This document shows positions 5,579 to 45,312 of a DNA stretch of 45,312 bases, one piece after another. Position 1 is the first letter of the stretch; each line of letters starts with the position of its first letter. The translations under genes were made by a program, and so were the position numbers. The notes below the pieces were generated by a model. The model did not search any database. It saw only the letters and a list, made by a program, of their open reading frames with translations, and had not been told where the DNA came from. Source of the stretch: Veterinaerplatzvirus T145P1; sequence record OZ035786.1. One strand, given 5' to 3'.

Positions 5579-5601
5579 AGCCTCCTTCGGGAGGTTTTTT
5601 T
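5579..5601 (+). terminator. rho-independent terminator
   Basis: gcctcc-ttcg-ggaggt hairpin followed by T7. Confidence 0.75.
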
Positions 5602-5607
5602 ATACCA

Positions 5608-6624: not shown

Positions 6625-6646
6625 GCCCTCTTCGGAGGGCTTTTTT
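6625..6646 (+). terminator. rho-independent terminator
   Basis: gccctc-ttcg-gagggc hairpin followed by T6. Confidence 0.75.
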
Positions 6647-6709
6647 ACGTCTGTACCAAATGGATTTGTTGGGTTATAATCACTCAATCAGATAACAAAG
6701 GAGACAAAA

Positions 6710-9259: not shown

Positions 9260-9267
9260 AGCACAAA

Positions 9268-9287
9268 CCCTCTTCGGAGGGTTTTTT
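9268..9287 (+). terminator. rho-independent terminator
   Basis: ccctc-ttcg-gaggg hairpin followed by T6. Confidence 0.8.
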
Positions 9288-9292
9288 ATTGC

Positions 9293-9336
9293 ATAGCACT
9301 TTTTGCTAAAGCGGTTATTCAACTTTGCTGTATAGT
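9293..9336 (+). promoter_or_regulatory. phage promoter family copy
   Basis: atagcactttttgctaaa, 22 bp, tatagtta, then cctcatcgaaacgaaa leader. Confidence 0.6.
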
Positions 9337-9369
9337 TACCTCATCGAAACGAAATGAGAGATTAAAGAA

Positions 9370-13689: not shown

Positions 13690-13694
13690 ACTAA

Positions 13695-13714
13695 GCCCCT
13701 ATATGGGGCTTTTT
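13695..13714 (+). terminator. rho-independent terminator (weak)
   Basis: gcccc-tatat-ggggc hairpin followed by T5. Confidence 0.5.
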
Positions 13715-19302: not shown

Positions 19303-20274
19303 TTAGTAGAAGTTTGGGATAAATGGAAGTGCCATTGATATGTTCGTGTCGAAAGGAAACTGAGCGCCTGTCTGAGTTGAGTAGTTACCTATTACAGATC
19401 CAGGAACAGCCCTAACGGAGCCTCCAGACATGCAAACACCCTTGTATCGTAAGTTGTTATACCCTCCGGTAACTCTAGTTGTAGCGCCGCACCTAAGCAG
19501 CGGGAAGAAACCACCATTTATTGACTGATATCCATTGCTTATTTGTATAAATCCACCAAGAACGAATGGGCGGCGAACACTTGAAAAAACAATCTGACCA
19601 GAACTATTTGACATTGTGAGTCCAGGCCCGGCCGGTGGTGGTTCATTCCTGAATATCACCAGCTGAACATGGGTACTTGCCGCAACATCATCTGTACCTC
19701 CGTAGGTTATATCCCTACACCATATTGTTGATCCATCTGATTCAAGTGATACGTTTGGATTATCCCACTTGCCGAATGGTATTCCGCTAACTGGTAGCGA
19801 TGCTGCACCGTTAACCTGTATGCCCCCAACCCAGGCCGCAGACATTAGCCGCGAGTTGCTTGATATAGCAAGGAAATCAGTTGAGTTCTCAACAAGTATT
19901 CCAGGACTTGATGAGGATGAAGCCGGTAGTATCTCAAAGCAATTACCAGCAAAGTCAATTATTCGACCATTAGCACCATTGAAGTTGCTGATAGTTATCC
20001 TGCCAGTTCCGTCATTTACCTTTTGAAACCCGTTCATGTAATAAACTTCGGGTATAACATCGTAAGCGTCAACGTGGACTGCCTTCGTTGGTAGGCAGAA
20101 AGCCGTAGAGCCAGGAAACATTGTCAATCCAAAATCCCACGAGATTGCCGGGGTTGAAAGTCCATTGGTATTTATTGATCCAGTCACAGCAGGTGCCCTT
20201 AATCCTGCCGTGATTTCCATCGCTGGTCTTCCGTCATTGAGGTCAATCAATATACCCTGCGGCATTATTTCCAC
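19303..20274 (-). CDS. putative receptor-binding protein (tail tip accessory, downstream of J, opposite strand)
   Basis: 323-aa Gly/Ser/Asn-rich ORF co-transcribed with a lipoprotein gene; arrangement resembles receptor-binding protein plus exclusion lipoprotein loci of T1/T5-type phages. Confidence 0.4.
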
Positions 20275-20510
20275 TCCTTACTGCCGTGATCTGCAACAGA
20301 ACCGCCGTAACCGCCGCCAGATTTGCTTTCAATGCCAGCGTAGCGAATATCAACCTCACCAGCCGGAACAACTACACCGCCTTTCCACTTAGCTACGCAC
20401 ACGCCGTTTGCTTGTGTTGCACACCACCCATCAGGTCGAGGACCAGAAGAACAACCTACTGTCATGATTACTGCCGCCGAGATGATTGCTGATTTGATGA
20501 AGTTAGTCAT
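20265..20510 (-). CDS. small lipoprotein, putative superinfection-exclusion protein (Cor/Llp-like)
   Basis: Start moved to Met17 of track ORF (SD aaggaa 8 nt upstream). Signal peptide with lipobox MTVGCSS; 81 aa; overlaps start of the downstream gene. Confidence 0.5.
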
Positions 20511-20549
20511 TTTGTATTCCTTATTAAGTTGTTTCGTTTTGATGTAGTA

Positions 20550-20594
20550 ATAATACAACCGTCAGTGCGGAATGTCTTTAGCTATTCGTGCTAT
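20550..20594 (-). promoter_or_regulatory. phage promoter family copy (minus strand)
   Basis: Reverse complement reads atagcacgaatagctaaag, 22 bp, tattat, then catcaaaacgaaac leader before the lipoprotein gene. Confidence 0.5.
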
Positions 20595-20690
20595 TGCATA
20601 CACGTAACCGATGTAACTCGATGTATACAATCTCATCCGCGGAAAATGATATACGCACTGTTACGCAAATTTACGCATTGGTTACATTAA

Positions 20691-20752
20691 AATATCTATA
20701 TATATCAACCTTTTACTCTTATTATTATTATATATATATTACTGTGTATATC
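20691..20752. repeat. AT-rich repeat block copy 1 (second copy near 39755)
   Basis: aatatctatatatatcaaccttttact-(TTA)n-tatatat-tactgtgtata; within a divergent intergenic region. Confidence 0.6.
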
Positions 20753-20851
20753 ATGTAACTACTTCTATAGAGTGTTCCGGTTATAATTTTAATATCATGT
20801 GGATTTATACAGTATTGCGCTGCAGCTATACCAATGCACCCTCAGCAATAA

Positions 20852-21250
20852 ATGATATACACGATATACACGATGGTTACATTGAGCTATAGCTGGGCCG
20901 AGATGCCAAAAAACGTAACTAGTGCCAATGCCTACACGGAATTACAAGGATTCACGCGTAAACTTAAATCAACGATTGGCAAAACCAATTGGACTGGTTA
21001 CGGTGCCGAATATATAGTTAACTCATCGAAAGCAAACAACCAGAGAGATACAGAAATGACCTACTACATTATCAAAGAGAAAAACAACGCACTGTTCGGT
21101 GATTGCTACTTTGGCGGCCCTGCTGGATATACCACAGATAAGAAAGAGGCTGACAGATTCGAGACTAAAGAAGAAGCCCGAGATGTGCTGACTGGTTACT
21201 TCACTGAAGAAGATTTGAAGTCTGTTAAAGTGGTTAAGGTTAAGGAATAA
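20852..21250 (+). CDS. hypothetical protein
   Basis: 132-aa ORF; first ATG lacks a clear SD and sits inside gatatacac repeats; in-frame ATGs at 20873 and 20903. Confidence 0.4.
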   Translation: MIYTIYTMVTLSYSWAEMPKNVTSANAYTELQGFTRKLKSTIGKTNWTGYGAEYIVNSSKANNQRDTEMTYYIIKEKNNALFGDCYFGGPAGYTTDKKEADRFETKEEARDVLTGYFTEEDLKSVKVVKVKE

Positions 21251-21253
21251 AAT

Positions 21254-21451
21254 ATGAAGGCTTTTATAGACATAAATAAGTCACCATACAACGACGAGAA
21301 AGATCCTGAGGTAAGATTAAGGGTAAAATTTAGCACAGGAAGGGAGATAAATATAACAACTACATGTTCTGATTTAGCGAAAGCACTTATGGGTTGTAGT
21401 GAAGTTCCTGTTACTGTTTCAACGAGAAATGTTGAGGTGAAAATAAAATGA
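21254..21451 (+). CDS. hypothetical protein
   Basis: 65-aa ORF with SD aaggaa, coupled to the downstream exonuclease gene. Confidence 0.5.
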   Translation: MKAFIDINKSPYNDEKDPEVRLRVKFSTGREINITTTCSDLAKALMGCSEVPVTVSTRNVEVKIK

Positions 21452-22413
21452 CTTTCAGGGTTTACACACGAGAGGAGCTAAGCAACGAGGATTACCACTC
21501 AGAGCAAGATCATATCTCCGGCAGCTCACTTGTCGAGATTATCCAAGGATCACCAGCTAAGTGGAAGTTCAAGCAACGCAATAGAGATAGCAAGGCGCTT
21601 AAGTTTGGTACCTTATCTCACTGCATGATTCTCGAACAAGATGTATTCGACAAGGAGTATTTGCGAGCAGTAGACCTTGACGCGATTGAAGGCTTAATTA
21701 CAAGCCGGGCAGGATTAGCAGCAGCACTTAAAAAAGTCGGTGTGGCTGGAACATCAGGGAAGGGCTATAGCGAGCTTGTAGAGATGATGTATCGTTCTGG
21801 CGAGGACTGGCCCATTAAGTGGCTAATTGATCAGCTGGAAAGCGCTCAAGCGCTTGTGGAGGGTAAGGAGCTAGTTAGCGCAGCAGACTATGACAAAGTT
21901 GTGGCTATGCGTGAGGTTCTTTGCAATATTCCGGCATACAATGCAATCGTGAATAGTGAGACGGCGCAGAAAGAGTTATCAATCTTCGGTGAGATTCTCG
22001 GCGTCGGCGTTAAGATTCGAATTGACCATGTTGATGTTGTTGATGGCGTCGTTCGGATCACGGATTATAAAACGACAGCCGACGCAAGCCCTGAAGGATT
22101 TGGTAAGTCTGCATTTAATCACGGATACCTTGCAAAAATGGCGCTTCAGCGCGATCTGTTTGTGAAAGCATTTAACGAGAAGCGCAAGGTTGTTGTAGGA
22201 TTGCTGGCGCAGGAGAAGGTGGAGCCATACCTACCAATGCTGTACACACTAACCGACGAACAGCTGCGAATTGGTCGCCTTCAGTATCTTGAGGCACTTG
22301 CAACTTACAAGAAGTGCAAGGAGCTTGATATTTGGCCTGGATATTCTAACGGCATTACAGAGCAAGAGCTATTGGTTCCTGATTGGGCCATTAAACAATA
22401 TAGAGAGATATAA
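21448..22413 (+). CDS. PD-(D/E)XK family exonuclease (recombination exonuclease)
   Basis: Motif IDHVDVVDGVVRITDYKT resembles the D...(D/E)xK nuclease core; sits with erf and ssb. Confidence 0.55.
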   Translation: MTFRVYTREELSNEDYHSEQDHISGSSLVEIIQGSPAKWKFKQRNRDSKALKFGTLSHCMILEQDVFDKEYLRAVDLDAIEGLITSRAGLAAALKKVGVAGTSGKGYSELVEMMYRSGEDWPIKWLIDQLESAQALVEGKELVSAADYDKVVAMREVLCNIPAYNAIVNSETAQKELSIFGEILGVGVKIRIDHVDVVDGVVRITDYKTTADASPEGFGKSAFNHGYLAKMALQRDLFVKAFNEKRKVVVGLLAQEKVEPYLPMLYTLTDEQLRIGRLQYLEALATYKKCKELDIWPGYSNGITEQELLVPDWAIKQYREI

Positions 22414-22414
22414 A

Positions 22415-22879
22415 ATGAACAAAGATTGCTGGCAGACTCCTTTAGACTTATTCAAACCGATAGATGATAAATACAAATTCAAGGTTGACGTGTGCGCAAG
22501 CCAAGAAAACGCGCTTTGTAAATATTACTGGACTGTAGATGATGACTGCTTGCAACAGGATTGGGGAGATGATGGTGGTTTCGTTTGGTGCAATCCACCA
22601 TATAGCAATCCATTACCATTTGTTGAAAAGTGCCAGCAATACGGCTATGCGGTCATGCTATTGAATCAGGATACGTCAACAAAATGGGCTAAGATAGTCT
22701 TTGAAAAAGCATCAAAGGTTATACTTTTATCAGACAGGGTTAGGTTTATAAATCCAGTAACAATGGAGGTTGGTAAGTCAAATCCTAAATGCCAGATGAT
22801 TGTAGTTTTCGACAGGCGTAGCAATTCTGGAGTTGATATACGTTGGTGTTCAATAAAAGAAATTCATAAGCAAATTTAA
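22415..22879 (+). CDS. dam: DNA N6-adenine methyltransferase (phage Dam-like)
   Basis: In-frame ATG at residue 49 of track ORF, right after upstream stop. NPPY catalytic motif (WCNPPYSN) and N-terminal CWQTP. Confidence 0.75.
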   Translation: MNKDCWQTPLDLFKPIDDKYKFKVDVCASQENALCKYYWTVDDDCLQQDWGDDGGFVWCNPPYSNPLPFVEKCQQYGYAVMLLNQDTSTKWAKIVFEKASKVILLSDRVRFINPVTMEVGKSNPKCQMIVVFDRRSNSGVDIRWCSIKEIHKQI

Positions 22880-22924
22880 ATAGCATGAATTGCTAAAGAC
22901 AAAACTAAAGGGTGTGGGTATGAT
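22880..22924 (+). promoter_or_regulatory. phage promoter family copy
   Basis: atagcatgaattgctaaag abutting dam stop, tatgat about 23 bp downstream. Confidence 0.55.
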
Positions 22925-22953
22925 TACCCAATCAACAACGAACGAGGTTAAAG

Positions 22954-24074: not shown

Positions 24075-24100
24075 TAAGGCCCCTTTTGGGGCCTTTTTTA
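24075..24100. terminator. bidirectional rho-independent terminator
   Basis: ggcccc-tttt-ggggcc hairpin between ssb (+) and tailspike (-) stops, T-run on both strands. Confidence 0.8.
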
Positions 24101-26683: not shown

Positions 26684-26706
26684 TGTGTAGAGTCTCCATT
26701 TGTAAA

Positions 26707-26725
26707 ATAGCACGAATTGCTAAAG
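26707..26725. promoter_or_regulatory. orphan copy of the TAGCA-N5-TGCTA palindrome (no TATAGT box downstream)
   Basis: atagcacgaattgctaaag in + orientation between primase terminator and tailspike start, both on minus strand. Confidence 0.5.
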
Positions 26726-26747
26726 TGGATTGTAGCATCTTTGAGTC

Positions 26748-26770
26748 ATAAAAAAACCTCCCGAAGGAGG
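26748..26770 (-). terminator. rho-independent terminator (minus strand)
   Basis: cctcc-cgaa-ggagg hairpin with A8 run on + strand, i.e. U-run after the hairpin on the minus transcript. Confidence 0.7.
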
Positions 26771-27697
26771 TTAGTCTAGTAATTCGCTCGCCTTGTATAT
26801 TCGCTTTCTTATTCCTGATTTGAAGTGGTTATCATTATTTGGCATTACAACATCAAGATTGCGATCGTCAGCAACGGCGAGTAAATCAAAATCGCTGCGA
26901 GTACAAGCGATGCGTAACTTGTAGTTTCTAAGCGCGTAAGCAACCATTTCCATGTTGTAACTGGAGTGGCAAACAAGCACACAGCGGTTCCCAGTAGCAA
27001 TGTGAACGCGATAGCCATCAATGAAATTATCGACCAGATAAGCGTACTCATCATCCTTAAAGGAACCAATAACAGAAACAGACTGGCGAGAATAATCTTT
27101 TGCAGCATAACTAACATCTCCCTCCTCATTGATAAACATTACATTGCACATCTCTTCTGATATGCCGTCACTATAAGCCATAAAGCACGGAACTGCGTGG
27201 ATTAATTCACCTGATTTCGTCCTGCCAACATCAAAACCGAACTCGCTATAGATACCCTCGTATGTACTGAGAGGAGTTGATTCTACTCTTTCCGTCCTTT
27301 CCATTATCTCTAAGCATCTTTCGTGATCAATCTGAGCGCCCATTTTGTATGGTGATGTTCTTGAAGCTCTTTTGTTTGCTTTTGATATAACCTCTACTGG
27401 AACGAGATTCAGCCAATCACCAAGCGTATCTATTGTTTCACTATAACTCATTCCAGAACACTTCATTACCCAACCAACACCAGAATCATTTCCACACTGG
27501 TTGCATATTGCTGCGCCATTTCCCTTTTCTTGACCTAACTCATCAGTGAAGCGAAACCTATCCTTGCCAAAGCAGTAAGGGCACGGACCATGTTTCTTGC
27601 TGAGATTCTCCTTTGTCCATCCAAGATGCGATGAGTAGAACTCACTCCACATCCCTTTCATCTTGGCTATCACTTCGTTCTTATCATGGTGACTCAT
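26771..27697 (-). CDS. DNA primase (zinc-ribbon plus TOPRIM-like)
   Basis: Start moved to Met10 (SD ggaggt 4 nt upstream). CPYC...CNQC zinc-binding pair; acidic AVADDRNLD TOPRIM-like motif. Confidence 0.55.
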   Translation of the reverse strand: MSHHDKNEVIAKMKGMWSEFYSSHLGWTKENLSKKHGPCPYCFGKDRFRFTDELGQEKGNGAAICNQCGNDSGVGWVMKCSGMSYSETIDTLGDWLNLVPVEVISKANKRASRTSPYKMGAQIDHERCLEIMERTERVESTPLSTYEGIYSEFGFDVGRTKSGELIHAVPCFMAYSDGISEEMCNVMFINEEGDVSYAAKDYSRQSVSVIGSFKDDEYAYLVDNFIDGYRVHIATGNRCVLVCHSSYNMEMVAYALRNYKLRIACTRSDFDLLAVADDRNLDVVMPNNDNHFKSGIRKRIYKASELLD

Positions 27698-27752
27698 AAT
27701 TACCTCCATAAACAATAAAGGCACTATACATAATGCAAAGTGCCATTGTTTA

Positions 27753-28232
27753 TCAAATCGTGCTGTTTTGCTCTTTCTTCTTTTGGTTCTCTAATTTTAT
27801 CTTGCGCCATGAACGACACTCTGGCTTAGTGGCTAATTCAGCCTCAGTGACGACTCGCAGCATATGGCGCTTTTTGCACCGAAGTGTCAGCGGTTTCCCG
27901 TTGCCGTCGAATTGCAGGTCTGGTCGGCAGAATGTAGCGCGAAAACCTTCTCCATTTCGCTTATAGTAGTTGTGAGAAAGTTGAGCCCCACGCGCAGAAA
28001 TCATACCGCGCTTAAACCATTCTTCTACAGCCTGTGGTGTTACCTTTAACTGCTTTGCGATATTCGCCTTTGTGCCGAAGAAATCAAGAACTATCTCTAG
28101 CCGCGCGCGTAGCCCGGCTCTTACTTCATCTTTTAAAACATAGTAGCCTGAAGGTCGTTTACGTTGCTTTTTGTCTTCGGTGCGGATGGTTCCGTTATTG
28201 CCGTTAATTGTTCGCTTGTCGACTGTATTCAT
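27753..28232 (-). CDS. HTH DNA-binding protein (Cro/YdaS-like)
   Basis: Helix-turn-helix-like segment TKANIAKQLKVTPQAVEEWFKRG; basic termini; its SD overlaps a palindrome copy. Confidence 0.5.
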   Translation of the reverse strand: MNTVDKRTINGNNGTIRTEDKKQRKRPSGYYVLKDEVRAGLRARLEIVLDFFGTKANIAKQLKVTPQAVEEWFKRGMISARGAQLSHNYYKRNGEGFRATFCRPDLQFDGNGKPLTLRCKKRHMLRVVTEAELATKPECRSWRKIKLENQKKKEQNSTI

Positions 28233-28244
28233 TTCATTACCTCA

Positions 28245-28287
28245 ATAGCATTTTTTGTTAAAAGTCATCCTGATTTGATGGTATCAT
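28245..28287 (+). promoter_or_regulatory. phage promoter family variant upstream of helicase, overlapping the SD of the divergent HTH gene
   Basis: atagcattttttgttaaaa, then tatcat about 21 bp downstream. Confidence 0.45.
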
Positions 28288-30328: not shown

Positions 30329-30744
30329 AGATTACAGATAAAGAAGATTACATTGAGTTTTACCCGGGTCCGGTTAAGTCATGCCCTAAAGAGGATGACG
30401 AACAAATCTTTTGCTCTGATTGGGTTAAGTATAACTACCCAGATATGGTATTTTTCCATTGCGTGAATGAGGGAAAGAAAACCATTGGTCAAGCAAGAAA
30501 AGACCAGGCTAAGGGGCTTCTAAAAGGCGTATCAGACTGTATGTTTCTTATTCCTGAATCACTTCGAGGTAAGTATCCTTTCGGAGCTATAGAGCTAAAG
30601 AGGGCTGGCAAAACTCAAGCAAGTCCAGTCAGCGAAGAACAGAAAGCATTCCTGAAAAGTGTAATGGAATCAGGCGGTTTCTCGGCAGTCGCCTACGGAC
30701 GTGAGGGTTTTCTTGCAGCATTCAAAGAAATGATTTCAAAATAG
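30325..30744 (+). CDS. VRR-NUC domain nuclease (putative)
   Basis: ATG overlaps helicase stop (ATGA); GVSDCMFL...GAIELKRAGK resembles the D...E-x-K core of VRR-NUC. Confidence 0.5.
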   Translation: MKITDKEDYIEFYPGPVKSCPKEDDEQIFCSDWVKYNYPDMVFFHCVNEGKKTIGQARKDQAKGLLKGVSDCMFLIPESLRGKYPFGAIELKRAGKTQASPVSEEQKAFLKSVMESGGFSAVAYGREGFLAAFKEMISK

Positions 30745-30784
30745 CACGAATTGCTAAAGGCGATTTTAAAAGATGGGGTATAGT
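30741..30784 (+). promoter_or_regulatory. phage promoter family copy
   Basis: atagcacgaattgctaaa with TAG stop inside, 22 bp, tatagtta, ccatcgaaacgaaa leader. Confidence 0.6.
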
Positions 30785-30820
30785 TACTCCATCGAAACGA
30801 AACACAAAGAGAGAAATAAA

Positions 30821-31594: not shown

Positions 31595-31785
31595 TTAATG
31601 CAACTTGTGTAAAAGCAAATGGTTTCTTTACTCTACTTGAAGATTACGAAATTATCTTTAATTCAGATGGCGCAATAACAGTATTGAGCGATAATGGATG
31701 CTATTGGTTCGTTAGTTATCAAGGTGACGGGTATTACGGGTGTAGAGATTCGAATGGAAAAGAAGTTAGCTTCTTAGTTGAATAG
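31591..31785 (+). CDS. hypothetical protein
   Basis: 64-aa ORF, ATGA overlap upstream, stop inside next promoter motif. Confidence 0.45.
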   Translation: MINATCVKANGFFTLLEDYEIIFNSDGAITVLSDNGCYWFVSYQGDGYYGCRDSNGKEVSFLVE

Positions 31786-31825
31786 CACTTTTTGTTAAAA
31801 CTCAAATCCACGTATGGATTATATT
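31782..31825 (+). promoter_or_regulatory. phage promoter family copy (variant)
   Basis: atagcactttttgttaaaa, 22 bp, tatatt. Confidence 0.5.
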
Positions 31826-31855
31826 AAGCACATCAACAACACATAGGATTAAGAG

Positions 31856-32563: not shown

Positions 32564-33694
32564 ATGGCAACAGCAAAAATCACCAACGAACAATTGCGCG
32601 AAGAGTTAGCAAACGGCATGACCAACAAGGCAATCGCAGAGAAGTACGGAATGAACATTCGCAACGTTGAATTGCGTCGCAGTAAATTAGCTAAACAAGG
32701 CGAAGGGCATGGTCGCGATGTAAGCAACTTAATCCCTCAGGGCTATGCAGTTAAAGGCGTCTCCAGCTTAATTGGTGCTGATGGCGAGATTAAGCAACAG
32801 TGGGTTAAATCAGATATCGACAAGGAGAAGCAAGAAGAGATGATGCTTCAGGCAATTCAGGCCCTAACTGATGAGTTGCCGCGTGAGAAAGCTAAAGCTT
32901 TAAGGGTTGGTTTATGGGAAGATACTTTAAGCCTTTACCCCGTGTTCGACCTCCACATTGGAGCAATGGCTCATCATGCTGAGTGTGGTGAGAACTATAG
33001 TACTGAAATCGCTGAGAGAGTTCTTAATGATTACTTTGATTACGCGGTTGCAAAGGCCCCCAACTCCAAGAAAGCTGTATTGCTGATTGGGGGTGACTTC
33101 CTTCACTCTGACGGAATGGAAGCGGTAACACCAACCAGTTGTCATGTTCTTGATCAAGATAGCCGTTATCACAAACTTGTTTACGTAGCAGTGCGATCGA
33201 CACGTCGAGCAATTAGCCGCATGCTTGATAAGCACGCCGAGGTTGAGGTTCAGATTATTCCAGGTAACCACGATCTCTCAGGTATGATTTGGCTTCGTGC
33301 TGCAATGGCAGCTTTCTATATGGATGAGCCTCGAGTTAATGTTGATGCGTCCCCCGCTGCGCTTCACGTAACGCAATTTGGGAAGACGCTGCTTGGTTAC
33401 TGCCATGGGCACGAACTCAAAAAGCCTGATACCCGACTATCAGCACTGGCTCGTGACCATCGCAAAGCATTTGGTGAATCAGAGTATGTTTACACCCATT
33501 CAGGCCACTATCACCATCAAACTATTACGGAAGGAAATCTGGGTATTGATGAATCACACGGCCAGCTTGGAGCGAAAGATGCGTACAGTGCTAACGGAGG
33601 TTATCGCTCTTACCGACAGGCTTCGGTGATAATTTATAGTCCTGAGTTTGGTGAGATTGGACGATTTACTTGCCGCCCGGAAATGTTTAGTTAA
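32564..33694 (+). CDS. HTH domain fused to calcineurin-like metallophosphoesterase
   Basis: N-terminal HTH-like TNKAIAEKYGMNIRNVELRRSKL; phosphoesterase motifs DLH, GGDFLH, GNHD, CHGHE, HSGHYHH in order. Confidence 0.6.
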   Translation: MATAKITNEQLREELANGMTNKAIAEKYGMNIRNVELRRSKLAKQGEGHGRDVSNLIPQGYAVKGVSSLIGADGEIKQQWVKSDIDKEKQEEMMLQAIQALTDELPREKAKALRVGLWEDTLSLYPVFDLHIGAMAHHAECGENYSTEIAERVLNDYFDYAVAKAPNSKKAVLLIGGDFLHSDGMEAVTPTSCHVLDQDSRYHKLVYVAVRSTRRAISRMLDKHAEVEVQIIPGNHDLSGMIWLRAAMAAFYMDEPRVNVDASPAALHVTQFGKTLLGYCHGHELKKPDTRLSALARDHRKAFGESEYVYTHSGHYHHQTITEGNLGIDESHGQLGAKDAYSANGGYRSYRQASVIIYSPEFGEIGRFTCRPEMFS

Positions 33695-33737
33695 TAGCAC
33701 TTTTTGCCTAACGCATGCCGTAGAAATGCGGCATAAT
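33694..33737 (+). promoter_or_regulatory. phage promoter family copy (variant with hairpin in spacer)
   Basis: atagcactttttgcctaa, 22-bp spacer containing atgccg/cggcat inverted repeat, cataat, cacatcgaaacgag leader. Confidence 0.5.
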
Positions 33738-33778
33738 TACCACATCGAAACGAGATGAACTAAACGAGGAAACACAAA

Positions 33779-35595: not shown

Positions 35596-37179
35596 TCACC
35601 CCAGCAATCTCGGATTAATGTAAACTTTATCACCAATCAGGCACGTATAGTTTTTCTCATCAAGCATTGGCAGTAAGTGATCTTTAATCTTCGTCATCAC
35701 TCCAGCCTGAGCCTCGAACGGCTTAACCTTTCGCGCCGCTTCATACAATGAGCGAATGCCAACAACACCCTTACCGTTTTTACCCTGCTTGATCAGGATA
35801 TCAATCAGCTTATTCATCTCGGCATTGTCGCCAGCGTGACCAGCCGCGTTGGCAGATGACAAATAAGTCTTGCTAAGCTCCTGGAACATTATTACAGCTT
35901 CTTGCATGGTATCAAGCTCAATCTCTCTGGATTTCTGTGGACTCCCACCGCTAGGGTTGAACCAGTTGCGCACTGTGTGAAGAACAGCAGCAATCCTGAT
36001 AGCCTGCTTATCGAATTTACCCAGCGCGCCGCGCAACATTGTGTGGGAATACTTACCGCCGTCCGCAAGGTGCGGCTCCATTTCCTGACGTGCCCGGTTT
36101 AGATATTTCATCGCTGAGTTGCTAACCGTCAACTTTACTTCTTGCTCATTCATGATTTCGTGAACCAGGCGGAAGTAGTTAGCCTTAAGCTCACCATCAA
36201 TTGGCTCGTAAGTTGAGTTGCCATTCTCATCGACGAATACACGCTCGCCAAGGAATGATTTTTCACGCACAAGTAGAAAACGTTCCGACACACCAATACC
36301 ACGAGCACCAGCATTCATGATTGCGTTTATTGTCTCATCTTGCGCAATTACAGAGATGCATCCCATAGCGACGAAGCTCATGTTGTTTTCTGCGTTCGCA
36401 CGCGCAATGGACACGTTACCAGCATCCCACGCCTTGAGTACGAGCTCGCTGTTCGTTTTCTTTGAGCCATCACCATAGGTCATACCTAGCAGAGAGTTCA
36501 CGCTCGTTGCTTCATCAGAGATAACCGCGAAGTTGCCCTGGCGGTTGTTTATTCGCGCAAGACCTTCAGGCGTCGTATCTGATACTGGAAATACGATATC
36601 GCACATCTTTTCCAGCTTCTCCTCTAAATCCTCTTTCTCCTCAAAGAGAGACGCCATCTCTGATGGTGACTTTTCCTGCTTCATCTCTTTGGATAATGCA
36701 GACAGCTTTGCCATAATCTTTTTACGCTCACGCTTTCGCACTTCATTAAGCCGCTCAGTCTCAGCAATCATTGGCGCAATAGAAAGCGAGTTAATTGCTG
36801 ATTTACCTGTGGATGGTGGCTGACTGGTTACTACGTATAGAGAGGTCGGTTGCTGGGTTCCGTGATACTCTACTGTAAAACGTCCCAGCATGGCGGCAGA
36901 AATACACCCCAGAAAGTGCATATAAGCTGAAGACTCTGGAAATTGAACAGAACGGGCAATATTGGCTGACAGCTTACCAACAACATCAATGTCATTACCG
37001 AGTGAGATTACGGGATACTTGTCATTAGCCGCATCAATCTCAACTGGCGCTTTCCAGAATGATTGAGACTGACGATATCCATTGGCATTAATAGCGACGC
37101 GCAGGGGTGGGAGGTTGTCTGCGGCAGCAATTGCCATAACCTGTTCAACAGATAGCTTATCTTCGTTGAAATCAAACAT
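35596..37179 (-). CDS. hypothetical protein with P-loop-like motif (possible replication-associated NTPase)
   Basis: 527 aa, SD ggagag; PPSTGKS Walker A-like motif; Lys/Glu-rich central linker. Confidence 0.5.
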   Translation of the reverse strand: MFDFNEDKLSVEQVMAIAAADNLPPLRVAINANGYRQSQSFWKAPVEIDAANDKYPVISLGNDIDVVGKLSANIARSVQFPESSAYMHFLGCISAAMLGRFTVEYHGTQQPTSLYVVTSQPPSTGKSAINSLSIAPMIAETERLNEVRKRERKKIMAKLSALSKEMKQEKSPSEMASLFEEKEDLEEKLEKMCDIVFPVSDTTPEGLARINNRQGNFAVISDEATSVNSLLGMTYGDGSKKTNSELVLKAWDAGNVSIARANAENNMSFVAMGCISVIAQDETINAIMNAGARGIGVSERFLLVREKSFLGERVFVDENGNSTYEPIDGELKANYFRLVHEIMNEQEVKLTVSNSAMKYLNRARQEMEPHLADGGKYSHTMLRGALGKFDKQAIRIAAVLHTVRNWFNPSGGSPQKSREIELDTMQEAVIMFQELSKTYLSSANAAGHAGDNAEMNKLIDILIKQGKNGKGVVGIRSLYEAARKVKPFEAQAGVMTKIKDHLLPMLDEKNYTCLIGDKVYINPRLLG

Positions 37180-37605: not shown

Positions 37606-37955
37606 TTGTATTGAGCCTCAAATCTGTAGTCGCCGCAGATTGTAATAAATCCAACCTCATCATCCCTTAAAAGCTGCCAAGCATTACCCTCTTTATCGTA
37701 AATGCATCCAGCGCGCTGCCCAAGTCCAGCATGGAGATCTACTTGATATCGCTTACCTTCAGTAAAGTATTTTCGAATAGATGAGCGATGATTGACCTTT
37801 GTGCAATAAATTGTCTTTGTCTTAATATACTTTCCGCGCTCTTCCAGGTTAATCCATTTGCCATCTTTCTTGATTTGCTCTACACCATCTTTTACTCGGG
37901 CTTTGTAGAGTACGTTTTCGTTGCTGATCCAGTTTTTAGTAATCGTAGTAGTCAT
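37602..37955 (-). CDS. hypothetical protein
   Basis: 117-aa ORF directly downstream of a minus-strand promoter copy. Confidence 0.5.
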   Translation of the reverse strand: MTTTITKNWISNENVLYKARVKDGVEQIKKDGKWINLEERGKYIKTKTIYCTKVNHRSSIRKYFTEGKRYQVDLHAGLGQRAGCIYDKEGNAWQLLRDDEVGFITICGDYRFEAQYK

Positions 37956-37991
37956 TTTGTTTTCCTTTGTGTCTTTCGTTTCGATGGGATA

Positions 37992-38035
37992 ACTATACAG
38001 GAAAAGCCCCGAATGGCTTTAGCGATTAGTGCTAT
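37992..38035 (-). promoter_or_regulatory. phage promoter family copy (minus strand)
   Basis: Reverse complement reads atagcactaatcgctaaag, 22 bp, tatagtta, tcccatcgaaacgaaaga leader. Confidence 0.55.
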
Positions 38036-38270
38036 TTATTGCCTTTCGCCCAAGTGGTGTTATCGCTACCTTATACCAAGTTCCAATTTCTGGATTATTT
38101 ACATTATATGCCAGATCTACATAGCCTAGCCGAAATAGTTTTGGTATACACCTGGATGAATTGCCAGAATCTCGAATCCTTCCTCGACTAAAGTCATAAC
38201 TTATTTGATGAATTTCTCCATTTTGAATGCAGTGGAGGGTTTTTATTGCAGTTTCAGAAATTTTAATCAT
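38019..38270 (-). CDS. hypothetical protein
   Basis: 83-aa ORF from the track; 3' end overlaps the promoter copy. Confidence 0.5.
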   Translation of the reverse strand: MIKISETAIKTLHCIQNGEIHQISYDFSRGRIRDSGNSSRCIPKLFRLGYVDLAYNVNNPEIGTWYKVAITPLGRKAINSTNR

Positions 38271-39214: not shown

Positions 39215-39425
39215 TTTGTTACCTTTTGAGTTTTTTTATTATCGACATCTCTTCAACGTACTCGCTACAACTCGGGATTTTACTCCCGGCCCGGCATCCT
39301 AACAAAAGGACCCGCTCGGCGCTTTGGTGGGTGAGGTAACGCTTCCTCACATTGCGCGGTAGTATTTACTCCTTTTGGTCTCTTTCGAGAGTGACTCAGA
39401 GTCTGCTACCGTGTCGATGAGATTA

Positions 39426-39470
39426 AGTATACGCATAGTTAGCCACACTGTCTTTAGCAAAAAGTGCTAT
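39426..39470 (-). promoter_or_regulatory. phage promoter family copy (minus strand) with roughly 200-nt leader
   Basis: Reverse complement reads atagcactttttgctaaag, about 22 bp, tatact, then ctcatcgacacgg. Confidence 0.5.
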
Positions 39471-39754
39471 TCGTTAGATTTATGTATTGTTGCAGATATT
39501 GCAATGATTCACTTGATTATTGCACATACAGCAATATTGCTTCCGATGCAATGATGTTTTTGATTGTTGCGAAAAGTGAAATTAAGTGGTGAGTGAGTGA
39601 ATGAAAGATGGATGGACTACCATACAAGTTGATTTTTACCAATCTATGGGAGCCTCACGGATATACGCGTATCCTCCGTATACTCAGTGTCGTCACAAAA
39701 GTTAGTGACCACTAACCTACGTTTTTACGCGATATATACACACGATATACAATA

Positions 39755-39830
39755 TAATATCTATATATATCAACCTTTTACTTTATTATTATTATTATTA
39801 TTATATATATGTATACTGTGTATACCGGTA
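39755..39830. repeat. AT-rich repeat block copy 2 (first copy near 20691)
   Basis: aatatctatatatatcaaccttttact-(TTA)n-tatatat-tactgtgtata with a longer TTA tract; the track ORF here is a poly-Leu artefact. Confidence 0.6.
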
Positions 39831-40030
39831 ATTGGTGAGATTATTGATATGTTCCGCGCAGATATTCTGACACCTGTCAGAAATGGATGGCATTGTAGGA
39901 ATAAAAGGCACATATATAGGGAATGGCTTCAAAAATCTGTACACATCGGATACGGCACATTTACAACCAGCAATGGAGGGGCCTCTGGAGGCAAAAAGCG
40001 TATCCATGATAAAATAGACGAAAATATACA

Positions 40031-40059
40031 TTGACCGACACGTAAATAGATGGCAATAT
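40031..40059 (+). promoter_or_regulatory. sigma70-like promoter
   Basis: TTGACC, 17-bp spacer, CAATAT, upstream of 40100 gene. Confidence 0.5.
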
Positions 40060-40099
40060 AGCAGTCACTGAAACGAAGTAAAACAAACGAGGTATCAAC

Positions 40100-40648
40100 A
40101 TGCAGAAAGTAACACTAGGTGAAGTTATCCGTGAGATGGTGCGCAACGCGATGGTGTCCGAGAGTGGTGAGTTTAAAGTTCCGGTTAGCCAGATATTCAA
40201 ACTGGTTCGAGGCAAGGAATACCCTGAAATGGTGTATGACGAAGAGACTAGTGAGATCCTCAACCTGGCAGATAGGGCGATGCCGGAACTAAAGAACTCA
40301 TACATCTATAACACAGTGTCGAGAATGACAGAGCTTCGCGATGCTAATAAGCGAGCGAGATATAAGTTCATCTGGATTGATGATGACGGAGAGCAAACAA
40401 GGCCCGGTAGCTTCGACGGTGATGGCGCTGATAAATACCTGGTCATATACATTGAGAACGGCGCGCACTGGACTGGGAGTCGCGAAAAGAAAAAGCAGGA
40501 AGCGGAGAAAGAGGCGGCTATCATTGAAAAGTTCAAGTCTAGACTGCTCAAGCTGTCACCAAGTGTTGCTGGCTTGGAAGGTGAAGAACTTAAGGGCGCT
40601 GTTACAATGATTAATGCTTATCAGGAAATGATTAAGGAGACTAAGTAG
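40100..40648 (+). CDS. hypothetical protein
   Basis: 182-aa ORF, SD gagg; Lys/Glu-rich C-terminus. Confidence 0.6.
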   Translation: MQKVTLGEVIREMVRNAMVSESGEFKVPVSQIFKLVRGKEYPEMVYDEETSEILNLADRAMPELKNSYIYNTVSRMTELRDANKRARYKFIWIDDDGEQTRPGSFDGDGADKYLVIYIENGAHWTGSREKKKQEAEKEAAIIEKFKSRLLKLSPSVAGLEGEELKGAVTMINAYQEMIKETK

Positions 40649-40738: not shown

Positions 40739-40782
40739 ATAGCACTTTTTGCCTAACGCGGTAATGCCATGGATGGCATAAT
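40739..40782 (+). promoter_or_regulatory. phage promoter family copy (variant with hairpin in spacer)
   Basis: atagcactttttgcctaa, spacer with atgcca/tggcat inverted repeat, cataat, cctcatcgaaacgag leader. Confidence 0.5.
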
Positions 40783-40820
40783 AGCCTCATCGAAACGAGA
40801 TACGTAAATGAGGATTTAAA

Positions 40821-42242: not shown

Positions 42243-42572
42243 ATGAGTAAATACGATCGCAAGATTATTGGCATTGATGGCACAGTAACAACAGTAGATG
42301 TTTATCGTGTTCTTGATGCGTTTGGCGTATCTGACCCAGCCACTCAGCATGCGGTAAAGAAGATGCTTTGCACTGGCCTGCGTGGACACAAGGATTACTT
42401 AACTGACCTTAATGACTCCATTGAGTCACTACAGAAGGCTAAAGAGATTTACTGGCAGAAGATGATTCATGAATCCGATAAAATCACTGATTCAATTTTA
42501 AATCCACCAAAAGAAGCGAGATTTAGTACTGCTAATGGTTCAGAATTCACTTTCGGAAAGGTTAGAGTCTAA
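42243..42572 (+). CDS. hypothetical protein
   Basis: 109-aa ORF; upstream TGgTATAAT extended -10 at about 42081. Confidence 0.5.
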   Translation: MSKYDRKIIGIDGTVTTVDVYRVLDAFGVSDPATQHAVKKMLCTGLRGHKDYLTDLNDSIESLQKAKEIYWQKMIHESDKITDSILNPPKEARFSTANGSEFTFGKVRV

Positions 42573-42616
42573 ATAGCACGAATTGCTAAACCCGCTCCTG
42601 CGGGTTTTGTTATAGT
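42573..42616 (+). promoter_or_regulatory. phage promoter family copy with terminator hairpin in the spacer
   Basis: atagcacgaattgctaaa, spacer contains cccgc-tcct-gcggg followed by ttttgtt, then tatagtta. Confidence 0.55.
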
Positions 42617-42644
42617 TAGTTCACACCAATCGAGAGGTAAGAAA

Positions 42645-42952: not shown

Positions 42953-43086
42953 TTTACATCCACACGTACTACACTGGTAAGTTTAATAGCGTCAAACATG
43001 TCCGTGTTCACGATAACTACGAGAGCGCAAAAGCTCAATGGTTGGTTCTTGGTGGTGACATTAATTCATACAGAGTTGCTGAGTAG
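42949..43086 (+). CDS. hypothetical small protein
   Basis: 45-aa ORF ([15 protein letters not shown]...), ATGA overlap upstream, TAG stop inside next promoter motif. Confidence 0.35.
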   Translation: MIYIHTYYTGKFNSVKHVRVHDNYESAKAQWLVLGGDINSYRVAE

Positions 43087-43126
43087 CACTAATTGCTAAA
43101 ACAGTATTGGGGTAATTTGTTATAGT
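43083..43126 (+). promoter_or_regulatory. phage promoter family copy
   Basis: gtagcactaattgctaaaa, 22 bp, tatagtta, ccccatcgaaacgagagagg leader. Confidence 0.55.
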
Positions 43127-43156
43127 TACCCCATCGAAACGAGAGAGGAATAAGAA

Positions 43157-43823: not shown

Positions 43824-43953
43824 ATATGTTATCGCATGTGAACGACTGGTCTTTGATATGAAGACTTTTCACTGGTTCATAATTAAGGATTTAGTTAAGC
43901 CTTATAAGAAAGGTGTTATGCCAGAGCAGTTTGTTAAGTCGTTCTACAAATAG
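43810..43953 (+). CDS. hypothetical small protein
   Basis: 47-aa ORF (MSFTEYVIACERLVFDMKTFHW...), TAG stop inside next promoter motif. Confidence 0.3.
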   Translation: MSFTEYVIACERLVFDMKTFHWFIIKDLVKPYKKGVMPEQFVKSFYK

Positions 43954-43993
43954 CACGAATTGATAAACCAGATCGCCACGGATGGCATATAAT
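43950..43993 (+). promoter_or_regulatory. phage promoter family copy (variant)
   Basis: atagcacgaattgataaa, spacer with gcca/tggc inverted repeat, TATAAT. Confidence 0.55.
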
Positions 43994-44026
43994 CACCATA
44001 TCAATACAACGAGAGAGATAAAGCAA

Positions 44027-44954: not shown

Positions 44955-45031
44955 GCTCGAGTGGCGAAAGTGGATATCGCAAGAGACTTCTAATCTCTAG
45001 ATTGCTGGTTCGAATCCAGCCTCGAGCGCCA
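44955..45031 (+). tRNA. tRNA-Arg (anticodon UCU), CCA encoded
   Basis: Hand-folded cloverleaf: acceptor gctcgag/ctcgagc, D-stem gcga/tcgc, anticodon stem agaga/tctct with loop cttctaa, T-arm gctgg-ttcgaat-ccagc, discriminator g, CCA. Confidence 0.75.
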
Positions 45032-45273: not shown

Positions 45274-45297
45274 AGCCCTCGCTTGAGGGCTTTTTTT
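45274..45297 (+). terminator. rho-independent terminator
   Basis: agccctc-gctt-gagggct hairpin followed by T7. Confidence 0.8.
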
Positions 45298-45312
45298 CGT
45301 CTGCAATATGGT

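Follow-up and report, generated by a model that had tools for sequence, protein, structure and literature searches.

Paired repeat-flanked, AT-rich modules as possible replication origins of an Rtp-like coliphage

Introduction

What does the long non-coding gap between two divergent operons do in the genome of Veterinaerplatzvirus T145P1? The sequence record OZ035786.1, analyzed here at its full length of 45,312 bp and called the window below, is the complete genome of an Rtp-like coliphage (Drexlerviridae, Braunvirinae). A sequence-only reading of this DNA had singled out an AT-rich repeat block in the gap (locus A), had seen a nearly identical block elsewhere (locus B), and had proposed that it might be a replication origin, a pair of divergent early promoters with operator repeats, or a recombination hotspot. 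The analysis described here favors a cis-acting element that is under selection and is situated between divergent promoters. Read from the sequence, its features appear to fit an origin best. We tentatively interpret module A (~20598-20985) and module B (~39641-40030) as two iteron-plus-unwinding-element replication origins, an interpretation whose chances we put somewhat short of even.

The seven classical T phages include T1, and T1-like phages are frequent contaminants of laboratories and fermentations as well as candidates for phage therapy. For T1-like phages, the authors of the SU57 and TLS papers report that they could identify neither an origin nor iterons nor an oriC-like site (PMC7718038, PMC11447400). 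Full-text searching returned no further origin reports for this group, with an earlier description of the repeats being possible in the older T1 or original Rtp literature.

Setting and anatomy of module A

Gene order in the window is that of Rtp and T1, and the 1-kb region around locus A is 90% identical to phage Rtp. To the left of the locus is a leftward lipoprotein operon (coding sequence 20265-20510, phrog_4281), and to the right is a rightward operon that encodes two small proteins (64 aa and 65 aa), RecE (21448-22413), Erf and SSB, a protein that binds single-stranded DNA. The intervening gap had been taken to be roughly 300 bp, but the lipoprotein coding sequence ends at 20510 and the downstream ATG is at 21056, which leaves a non-coding region of 545 bp (20511-21055).

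The AT-rich block itself is present at 20691-20750, slightly offset from where it had been placed. It reads AATATCTATATATATCAACCTTTTACT-C-(TTA)4-TATATATAT-TACTGTGTATA, or AATATCTATATATATCAACCTTTTACT-C-(TTA)4-(TA)n-TACTGTGTATA in general form. The flanking direct repeats of the type AATGATATAC(G/A)C...GGTTACATT are also there, as AATGATATACGC...GGTTACATT at 20645-20688 and AATGATATACAC...GGTTACATT at 20851-20883. The tandem GATATACAC duplication exists as well, at 20854-20871 and not at 20856-20873 (Tandem Repeats Finder, TRF, gives 20854-20874 and 2.3 copies), and it falls in a non-coding stretch rather than within the first codons of a gene, as had been supposed. The conserved element of the locus is wider than first reported and reaches left to about 20598 and right to about 20985 (Table 1).

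Each module is situated between outward-facing promoters and consists of a core enclosed by arms of short, ~10-bp-phased repeats (TTACGC / ATACAC / GTTACAT), which are arranged as left and right direct repeats. The word GATATACRC has six exact matches in the window against 0.47 expected, a count that none of 100 shuffled sequences reached, and four of the six are in locus A and one is in locus B. Three copies of TACRC at exact 10-bp spacing (20652, 20662, 20672) form the genome's sole cluster of at least three same-strand matches within 45 bp (shuffle mean 0.33 clusters). When the adjoining TACAT is added to the three TACGC copies of the left arm, the spacings are 10, 10 and 11 bp, so that the repeats are helically phased. 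The outer left flank also has a period of 10 bp (TRF, 2.3 copies at 20604-20625; pairwise identity 0.89) and is invariant even in Rogunavirinae. The right arm, made up of two copies of GATATACAC and one of GGTTACATT, is paralogous to the locus B right arms of Rtp and Msk. The third repeat cluster is retained in part in Rogue1 and AHS24, and the variable spacer differs in Rtp locus B, Rogue1 and ETEP102. No terminator-like sites were found in either intergenic region by a terminator scan.

Duplex stability and lineage-specific repeats

Duplex stability was calculated by a nearest-neighbor free-energy scan at segment lengths of 40, 60 and 100 bp for seven complete genomes that represent four Drexlerviridae lineages (the window, Rtp, Msk, 12397V, T1, Hanrivervirus A136 and Webervirus cp17). 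The cores of loci A and B are the two lowest stability minima in all seven genomes at all three lengths. In the window, they lie 4.5-5.6 standard deviations from the mean and the next site lies at about 3. The core of module B is the least stable duplex there, and the AT tract plus (TTA)4(TA)n of module A ranks second (z ~4.5-5.1). The cores are 84-85% A+T, compared with 56% genome-wide.

An unbiased k-mer test was used to find motifs that are common to both loci and rare elsewhere. It returned GATATAC in the window (4+2 copies in the loci versus 6 outside), CCGCGGA in Rtp (2+4 versus 0), TGTAACA in T1 (4+2 versus 0), GATAACA in A136 (5+3 versus 6) and ATCTTAC in cp17 (10+3 versus 3). The repeats change with lineage, and both loci of one genome have the same motif. 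Recognizable arrays are formed by AAATTACGCC (two copies) and CGATTAACA (three copies) in T1, by TGTTATC at intervals of 9-11 bp in A136, and by GTAAGAT in cp17.

The second module

The nearly identical second block that the sequence-only reading had reported is located at 39756-39824, with (TTA)7.3 at 39783-39804. Within the window, loci A and B share 41 nt at 97.6% identity (E = 3e-13). The genome has one further large intergenic region between divergent genes, locus B (39215-40099), which is situated between a leftward box at 39472-39452 and a promoter at 40031-40059 that points right. Its left-arm motifs and core in the window are as in module A. In Rtp and Msk, locus B holds a diverged copy of the whole layout, about 270 bp long and including both arms, with CCGCGGAAAT, phased TAC(G/A)C repeats, the AT-rich core with its site for integration host factor (IHF), (TTA)n, TACTATGTATATCATGTA, and a right arm that ends in GGTTACATTGAGCTATA(G/T)CTGGGG. 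What is duplicated is the whole architecture of 250-400 bp, beyond the ~70-bp block that was first seen.

Three mechanically called open reading frames (ORFs) inside locus B, at 39375-39554 (+), 39687-40034 (+) and 39801-40031 (-), are probably not genes. Two are without a family match, and the remaining one, which overlies conserved pac-like DNA, matches a 39-aa PHROG labelled 'membrane protein' that may itself be derived from mis-called ORFs. At 37870-38256, beside its locus B, Msk encodes pieces whose resemblance to the DUF3987 helicase is confined to the first 48 and the last 63 residues. This 'mini-helicase' has 54-67% identity to the corresponding parts, is without the ATPase core, and has no equivalent gene in the window. 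A separate family, phrog_7327, matches the helicase C-terminus (residues 438-526), and the C-terminal domain may stand alone.

Conservation across relatives

The central 141 bp of module A are at least 95% identical in 75 of the 105 matching phage records, with the surrounding 1 kb mostly at 80-95%, and they are about 78-80% identical in Rogunavirinae. In an alignment of nine phages (the window and eight relatives), pairwise identity of the core is 0.96-0.99, compared with 0.96 at first and second and 0.74 at third codon positions of the neighboring gene. Relatives that lack the block while keeping the flanking genes would have counted against the sequence-only reading; the reverse was found, in that relatives keep the block and the flanking genes change. 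An anti-repressor is encoded to the left of module A in EC3a and to its right in Rogue1 and AHS24, a tail fibre gene is on the left in Stevie, there are no small ORFs beside it in ETEP102, and module A directly follows the HTH-primase operon in Webervirus cp17 (HTH, helix-turn-helix). No alignment with the window could be made for T1, Hanrivervirus A136 or Webervirus cp17, yet each has, at the same two loci, an extreme AT-rich core with short repeats on its flanks. The number of TTA units among relatives is 4-6 at locus A and 6-7 at locus B.

These diverse lineages were found by tblastn against GenBank phages, where 1,266 phage records matched RecE, hundreds of them from Drexlerviridae; a RecE protein scan of viral contigs returned close relatives only. 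Exact 16-mer scanning of IMG/VR with ATATCAACCTTTTACT gave 42 loci, mostly chance matches in unrelated coding DNA, and the block occurred only in T1-like genomes. The module was not found in plasmids or in 5,426 complete E. coli genomes, and there is therefore no satellite or plasmid use of it.

Extent of the non-coding region

The boundary of locus A depends on where the first gene of the rightward operon begins. An ORF at 20852-21250 had been taken as this gene, and its first codons would include the right-hand repeats. Substitutions in the nine-phage alignment are distributed over the three codon positions as 36/33/29 in its 5' half (p = 0.69, no bias) and as 9/6/54 in its 3' half, where the third-position excess is strong (p = 2e-14). 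The ATG of the long ORF is absent from five of the nine phages, which have ACG or GCG instead, and stops or a frameshift occur in its 5' half in five of eight relatives. Because the 5' half is without codon bias and, in the phages just counted, has lost its ATG or is interrupted by stops or a frameshift, the true start is the ATG at 21056, from which a protein of 64 aa is encoded. The non-coding region thus runs from 20511 to 21055, and the right-hand repeats (20854-20883) are outside codons. The phrog_5247 match covers only aa 69-132 of the long ORF, which the codon-position test rules out as an intact gene. In the 132-143-aa ORFs of GenBank (rtp46, HOR63_gp44 and similar), the 5' half is an artefact and only the last 64 codons (21056-21250) are coding.

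Candidate binding proteins

Four exact matches to the IHF consensus occur genome-wide, and two of these are in the two cores. TATCAACCTTTTA is found at 20703-20715 and 39768-39780, each time with ATATCTATATATA upstream, and fits WATCAANNNNTTR plus an upstream AT tract. Such a tract is typical of strong sites, and IHF is a candidate host factor. No exact DnaA box (TTWTNCACA) is present within 200 bp of any core in the seven genomes; the best is an 8/9 match, TGTGTATAT, that is an inverted phage repeat. Neither intergenic region of the window has a GATC site, and GATC is depleted genome-wide (63 sites versus 171 expected from base composition). With no exact DnaA box cluster and no GATC clustering, an oriC-type DnaA-dependent origin was rejected.

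A Cro-fold HTH protein of 159 aa is suggestive as the binder of the repeats. Its predicted structure is confident (predicted local distance difference test, pLDDT, 88), and its recognition helix TPQAVEEWFKR is more variable across the four lineages than the rest of the protein. PDB sequence searches with this protein and with the DUF3987 helicase gave nothing significant. The window also encodes a zinc-ribbon primase, the DUF3987 helicase, and an SF2 helicase that has a VRR-NUC nuclease as further replication proteins. Origins are commonly, though not universally, found in or beside initiator or replication genes. In the window, 6-7 kb separate module A from the genes for the HTH protein and the primase, and the DUF3987 helicase is encoded in the leftward operon that starts at locus B. 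The annotation of the T1 primase likens it to P4-type alpha primases.

The primase of the window (26771-27724, minus strand) is 56% identical to that of Rtp and 92% identical to that of Msk. Its neighbors are closer to those of Rtp, at 97% for the HTH protein and 83% for the SF2 helicase, a pattern that points to replacement of the primase gene alone, presumably by mosaic exchange.

A possible initiation mechanism

Among the proposed roles, an origin fits best because the modules combine phased repeats that are lineage-specific, a site for an architectural protein (the IHF consensus), the most meltable DNA of the genome (the two lowest-stability duplexes, in four lineages), a position between diverging promoters, and a core conserved as a property. 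If the modules are origins, a sequence-specific phage protein would oligomerize on the phased repeats of both arms, with the Cro-fold HTH protein as the best candidate, and IHF would bend the core. Negative supercoils behind the two diverging RNA polymerases could aid the melting of (TTA)n(TA)n, after which the DUF3987 helicase and the zinc-ribbon primase would be loaded and host Pol III would take over. By analogy with SPP1, one copy might serve as the firing origin and the other, in its bound state, as a roadblock that switches synthesis to a recombination-dependent, concatemer-forming mode; module A is directly upstream of RecE-Erf-SSB. In its most specific form, the proposal is that T1-like phages use oriA (upstream of RecE-Erf-SSB) and oriB (just inside the pac end), each made of phased, lineage-specific repeats around an IHF site and a (TTA)n(TA)n unwinding element, and that the initiator belongs to the Cro-fold HTH family of T1 gp23 / Rtp52, has a basic arm at its N-terminus and recruits the DUF3987 helicase and the zinc-ribbon primase. 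This version is more speculative, and we would not expect all of it to hold.

Several observations count against an origin. When phage SPP1 is scanned in the same way as a positive control, its oriR region ranks only third to fifth and oriL is unflagged; since this control succeeds in part, low stability is supportive but not diagnostic. T1 and cp17 lack the IHF consensus, so the mechanism cannot depend on IHF in every lineage. Proteins of the Cro fold typically regulate transcription and are less often initiators, and the gene of the candidate binder is 7 kb from module A, unlike the adjacent arrangements of lambda O/ori or SPP1 gene 38/oriL. The covariation of repeats with the HTH protein involves four lineages only, in which TerS and other proteins diverge in parallel, and when the HTH protein, primase, helicase and TerS were compared with repeat type across lineages, no single protein stood out. 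Promoter-like hexamers occur within the core, where other annotators have called promoters (EC3a, ETEP102). Finally, a search of the searchable literature found no initiation or phage-dependent replication data for the modules.

Alternative explanations

The main rival to an origin is a role in transcription control. The repeats would be operators for the Cro-fold protein and IHF an architectural factor, together governing divergent early promoters as lambda OL/pL and OR/pR do, and the AT core might hold very early promoters. We consider this somewhat unlikely, though only moderately less probable than an origin. Like lambda OL and OR, the modules are two related regions at divergent early promoters with repeated sites for a Cro-fold HTH protein; both are situated between divergent transcription units, and the phage encodes an HTH protein of the cognate type. 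Some of the repeats are palindromes suited to a dimeric HTH protein (ATACGCGTAT in the window at 39663-39672, ATATACGCGTATAT at Msk locus B, and two copies of GTAAGATGCATCTTAC in cp17). However, most are direct half-sites phased at 10 bp that flank an AT core with an IHF site and, unlike the lambda operators, are clear of the identified outward promoters of the window. In the window, the nearest cluster ends ~30 bp upstream of the -35 element, and the distance from core to promoter (~90-290 bp) differs between A and B and between lineages. At T1 locus B, a GTGTAACAC repeat does overlap the -10 element of the rightward promoter.

The promoter-like matches inside the core are TTTACT-17-TATATT on the plus strand and ATGATA-16-TATAAT on the minus strand, with the inverted GATATACAC at the predicted start site. 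Promoter-like hits in the two intergenic regions as a whole are only modestly more numerous than in shuffles (5 versus 2.9 for locus A and 7 versus 2.8 for locus B). The (TTA)n spacer at locus A is a near-constant 22-24 nt, which would preserve a promoter spacer of 17-19 nt, but at locus B it is 31 nt in the four type-1 copies recovered, which makes the same -35/-10 pair unworkable (the Rtp B copy has 23 nt). Nor is it obvious why transcription control would need an extreme instability of the duplex over 60-100 bp, conserved as a property in every lineage, and the module motif is missing from the promoter region of the HTH gene itself.

According to a second alternative, which is very improbable, module B is a packaging signal in which TerS binds the repeats beside an IHF site, as at lambda cosB or the P1 pac hexamers, and locus A is a second or vestigial terminase site. 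In lambda, the cosN cut is followed by the repeats and IHF site of cosB. Module B matches this order, with repeats and an IHF site directly downstream of a packaging cut, but locus A has no cut-site homologue and no counterpart of the pac-like sequence at 39473-39640. The headful start that PhageTerm assigned to MSK at position 36,862 (PMC8421802) maps to window 39620, and the end/start of the SU57 record, chosen by its authors from PhageTerm output, is equivalent to ~39638. The termini thus map to 39620-39639, at a distance of 20-40 bp from the left edge of module B, and packaging runs to the right across the module. The T1 record, which has an annotated 2.8-kb terminal repeat, starts just left of T1 module B, near window 39565 as placed by eye.

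What separates packaging from the module is the pattern of conservation. In a six-phage alignment, the likely pac region at 39473-39640 is 91% conserved, conservation falls off sharply at ~39637, and the 77-bp stretch at 39560-39636 is 93-98% identical even in phages with different adjoining DNA. The termini coincide with this break, so the packaging end is also a mosaic boundary. Beyond it, the left arm of module B is 61% conserved and exists in two allelic types, the core is 88% conserved, and the right part is 51% conserved. TerS, which is 93-98% identical among the window, Rtp and Msk, matches the pac-like region in its conservation, whereas the arms of the module differ from it. We therefore take pac and module B to be two neighboring elements, and this mismatch disfavors the module as a terminase site. 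In T1, moreover, the pac end and the module have a leftward promoter box between them, and the TLS and MSK papers discuss a single pac site for T1-like phages (PMC11447400, PMC8421802).

The least probable account is that the modules have no dedicated function and are conserved linkers or recombination hotspots for mosaic exchange with a slippage-prone (TTA)n microsatellite, because, for all that the genes on both sides of module A differ between relatives, locus B has a sharp mosaic boundary, (TTA)n varies in length and RecE, Erf and SSB are encoded next door, a linker has no need of an internal architecture conserved across unalignable lineages (T1, A136, cp17), of phased, lineage-specific repeats common to both loci, or of conservation equal to that of first and second codon positions. 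Recombination at the modules may well be a consequence and not the reason for their retention. Packaging and a passive linker are both less likely than either an origin or an operator/promoter region.

Promoters and other features of the genome

The leader after the TATAGT hexamer of the locus A rightward promoter, TCATCGAAAGC, is typical of the family and matches 9331-9349. Phage DTL retains both promoter hexamers, and the spacer between them is replaced. The leftward promoter box of locus A has inverted-repeat matches at 2106-2133, 26706-26725, 30740-30759 and 42572-42590. Related to these promoters is a 21-nt box, (A)ATAGCACnnnTTGnTAAA(G), that occurs in at least 15 copies in the window and is always oriented along transcription. 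In most copies, (G)TATAGTTAC comes next after ~20 nt, together with a leader of the type CATCGAAACGA. The box is too far upstream of the TATAGT hexamer for an ordinary -35 element. This family has been described for TLS, T1 and Rtp (PMC11447400).

Near-identical GC-rich hairpins followed by T runs (CCTCCTTCGGGAGG, GCCCTCTTCGGAGGGC, AGCCCCnnnnGGGGCT) recur at the ends of gene clusters and look like shared intrinsic terminators. A single tRNA-Arg gene (anticodon TCT) is present at 44955-45031 (+), and other T1-like phages are reported likewise. It was the sole match in an Rfam gathering scan of the whole window, which found no structured RNA family at the modules.

Table 1. Coordinates of features at loci A and B and of related elements elsewhere in the window
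Feature	Coordinates	Strand	Remarks
Leftward promoter box, ATAGCACnnnT(T/A)GCTAAAG-type (ATAGCACnnnTTGnTAAA family), lipoprotein operon	20576-20604	-	left edge of non-transcribed zone
Module A, outer left flank: 10-bp GTAAC repeats GTAACCGAT/GTAACTCGAT/GTATACAAT, then CCGCGGAAAAT	20598-20644	+	
Module A, left arm: AATGATATACGC-ACTGTTACGC-AAATTTACGC-ATTGGTTACATT	20645-20689	+	TACGC 20652/20662/20672, TACAT 20683; identity 0.91
Module A, AT tract and exact IHF consensus TATCAACCTTTTA (WATCAANNNNTTR)	20690-20718	+	IHF consensus at 20703-20715; identity 0.97
Module A, (TTA)4 and (TA)n, candidate DNA unwinding element	20719-20739	.	(TTA)4 at 20719-20730; stability scan
Module A, TACTGTGTATATCATGTAACTAC: inverted GATATACAC and GTAAC motif	20740-20775	.	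inverted GATATACAC at 20744-20752, minus strand; identity 0.96
Module A, variable spacer from core to right arm	20776-20848	.	identity 0.86, minimum 0.66
Module A, right arm: AATGATATACAC-GATATACAC-GATGGTTACATT-GAGCTATAGCTGGG, direct repeat of left arm	20849-20897	+	non-coding; formerly taken as ORF start
Module A, third repeat cluster: CCTACACGG-AATTACAAGG-ATTCACGCG	20928-20960	+	~10-bp spacing; TACAC 20933
Sigma-70-like promoter, then leader TCATCGAAAGCAAAC	20989-21055	+	-35 TTGGAC 20989-20994, 18-nt spacer, -10 TATAGT 21013-21018
True first gene of rightward operon, 64 aa, phrog_5247	21056-21250	+	codon-position bias; 65-aa gene, RecE, Erf, SSB next
Cro-fold HTH protein, 159 aa, rtp52 / T1 gp23 family, candidate binder	27753-28232	-	same operon as primase, just upstream of it
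Pac-like region: GCAATGAT/ATTGC repeats, then GTGAGTGAGTGAATGAAAGATGGATGGACTACCATACAAGTTGATTT	39473-39640	.	published termini map here
Module B, left arm: GGATATACGCGTATCC ... CCTACGTTTTTACGCGATATATACACACGATATACAATATAA	39641-39755	+	61% conserved; TACRC retained by either allelic type
Module B, core: AT tract, IHF consensus, (TTA)7, (TA)n, inverted GGTATACAC	39756-39826	+	IHF consensus 39768-39780, (TTA)7 39783-39804; identity 0.88
Module B, right part	39827-40030	+	51% conserved; arm degenerate here (ACATCGGATACGGCACATTTACAACC), clear in Rtp and Msk (..TACGCAGTGGTTACATTGAGCTATATCTGGGG)
Sigma-70-like early-operon promoter TTGACC-17-CAATAT	40031-40059	+	upstream of DUF7174 gene at 40100; kept in SU57, 12397V, Sd1
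21-nt box copies, plus strand	2114-2162, 9291-9354, 22877-22926, 26704-26734, 28237-28267, 30738-30802, 31774-31843, 33692-33755, 40739-40800, 42570-42619, 43083-43144, 43947-43996	+	
21-nt box copies, minus strand	20576-20604, 37974-38034, 39449-39472	-	
Hairpin/T-run families	5581-5603 / 26748-26770; 6625-6653, 9267-9295, 45275-45303; 2587-2607, 13694-13714, 24077-24097		

Significance

The analysis delimits two candidate origins with precise bounds, conserved family-wide, together with a candidate binding protein and a host factor (IHF). If the proposal is true, its pairing of origin and initiator would be one not described before, and it would answer the question of where T1 begins DNA synthesis. 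A widely copied annotation is corrected as well, in that the rtp46-type ORF consists of regulatory, non-coding DNA in its 5' half. This correction and the separation of pac from module B matter for phage engineering and for the choice of safe insertion and deletion sites.

Comparison with known systems

The lambda origin consists of iterons that adjoin an AT-rich tract, whose opening is aided by transcription from pR. Module A is similarly built from four phased repeats next to an easily melted AT-rich tract, nearby transcription would likely aid its opening, and its repeats vary by lineage in the way that lambdoid iterons vary with the O protein. The lambda origin is, however, single and located within gene O, whereas the module occurs twice and has repeats on both sides of its core. 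Lambda iterons are also 19-bp units with dyad symmetry, in contrast to the ~10-bp and mostly direct units found here.

Satellite phage P4 has two cis regions, ori and crr, that are several kb apart and have in common a short repeat bound by the replication protein. Its alpha protein unites primase, helicase and origin binding in one polypeptide. The two modules resemble ori and crr in being two regions with a common short repeat, but the repeat sequences are unrelated and the functions of alpha would here be split among separate genes.

The closest parallel is to SPP1, although there is no sequence similarity and the IHF consensus is a feature of the present modules, which are candidate origins. 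The SPP1 initiator gp38, loader gp39 and DnaB-type helicase gp40 are without recognized counterparts in the window, and SPP1 oriL is inside the initiator gene, unlike the modules, which are both intergenic. SPP1 is nevertheless also a virulent pac-type siphovirus of ~44 kb, and it has two origins of similar organization, each built from direct repeats together with an unwinding element that is AT-rich, with oriR in a long intergenic region (PMC6316719). A proposed role of its second origin, once the initiator occupies it, is to make forks stall and to pass synthesis on to an exonuclease, an annealing protein and SSB (PMC6316719). The same three kinds of protein that are implicated in this concatemer switch are encoded here by RecE, Erf and SSB, just downstream of module A.

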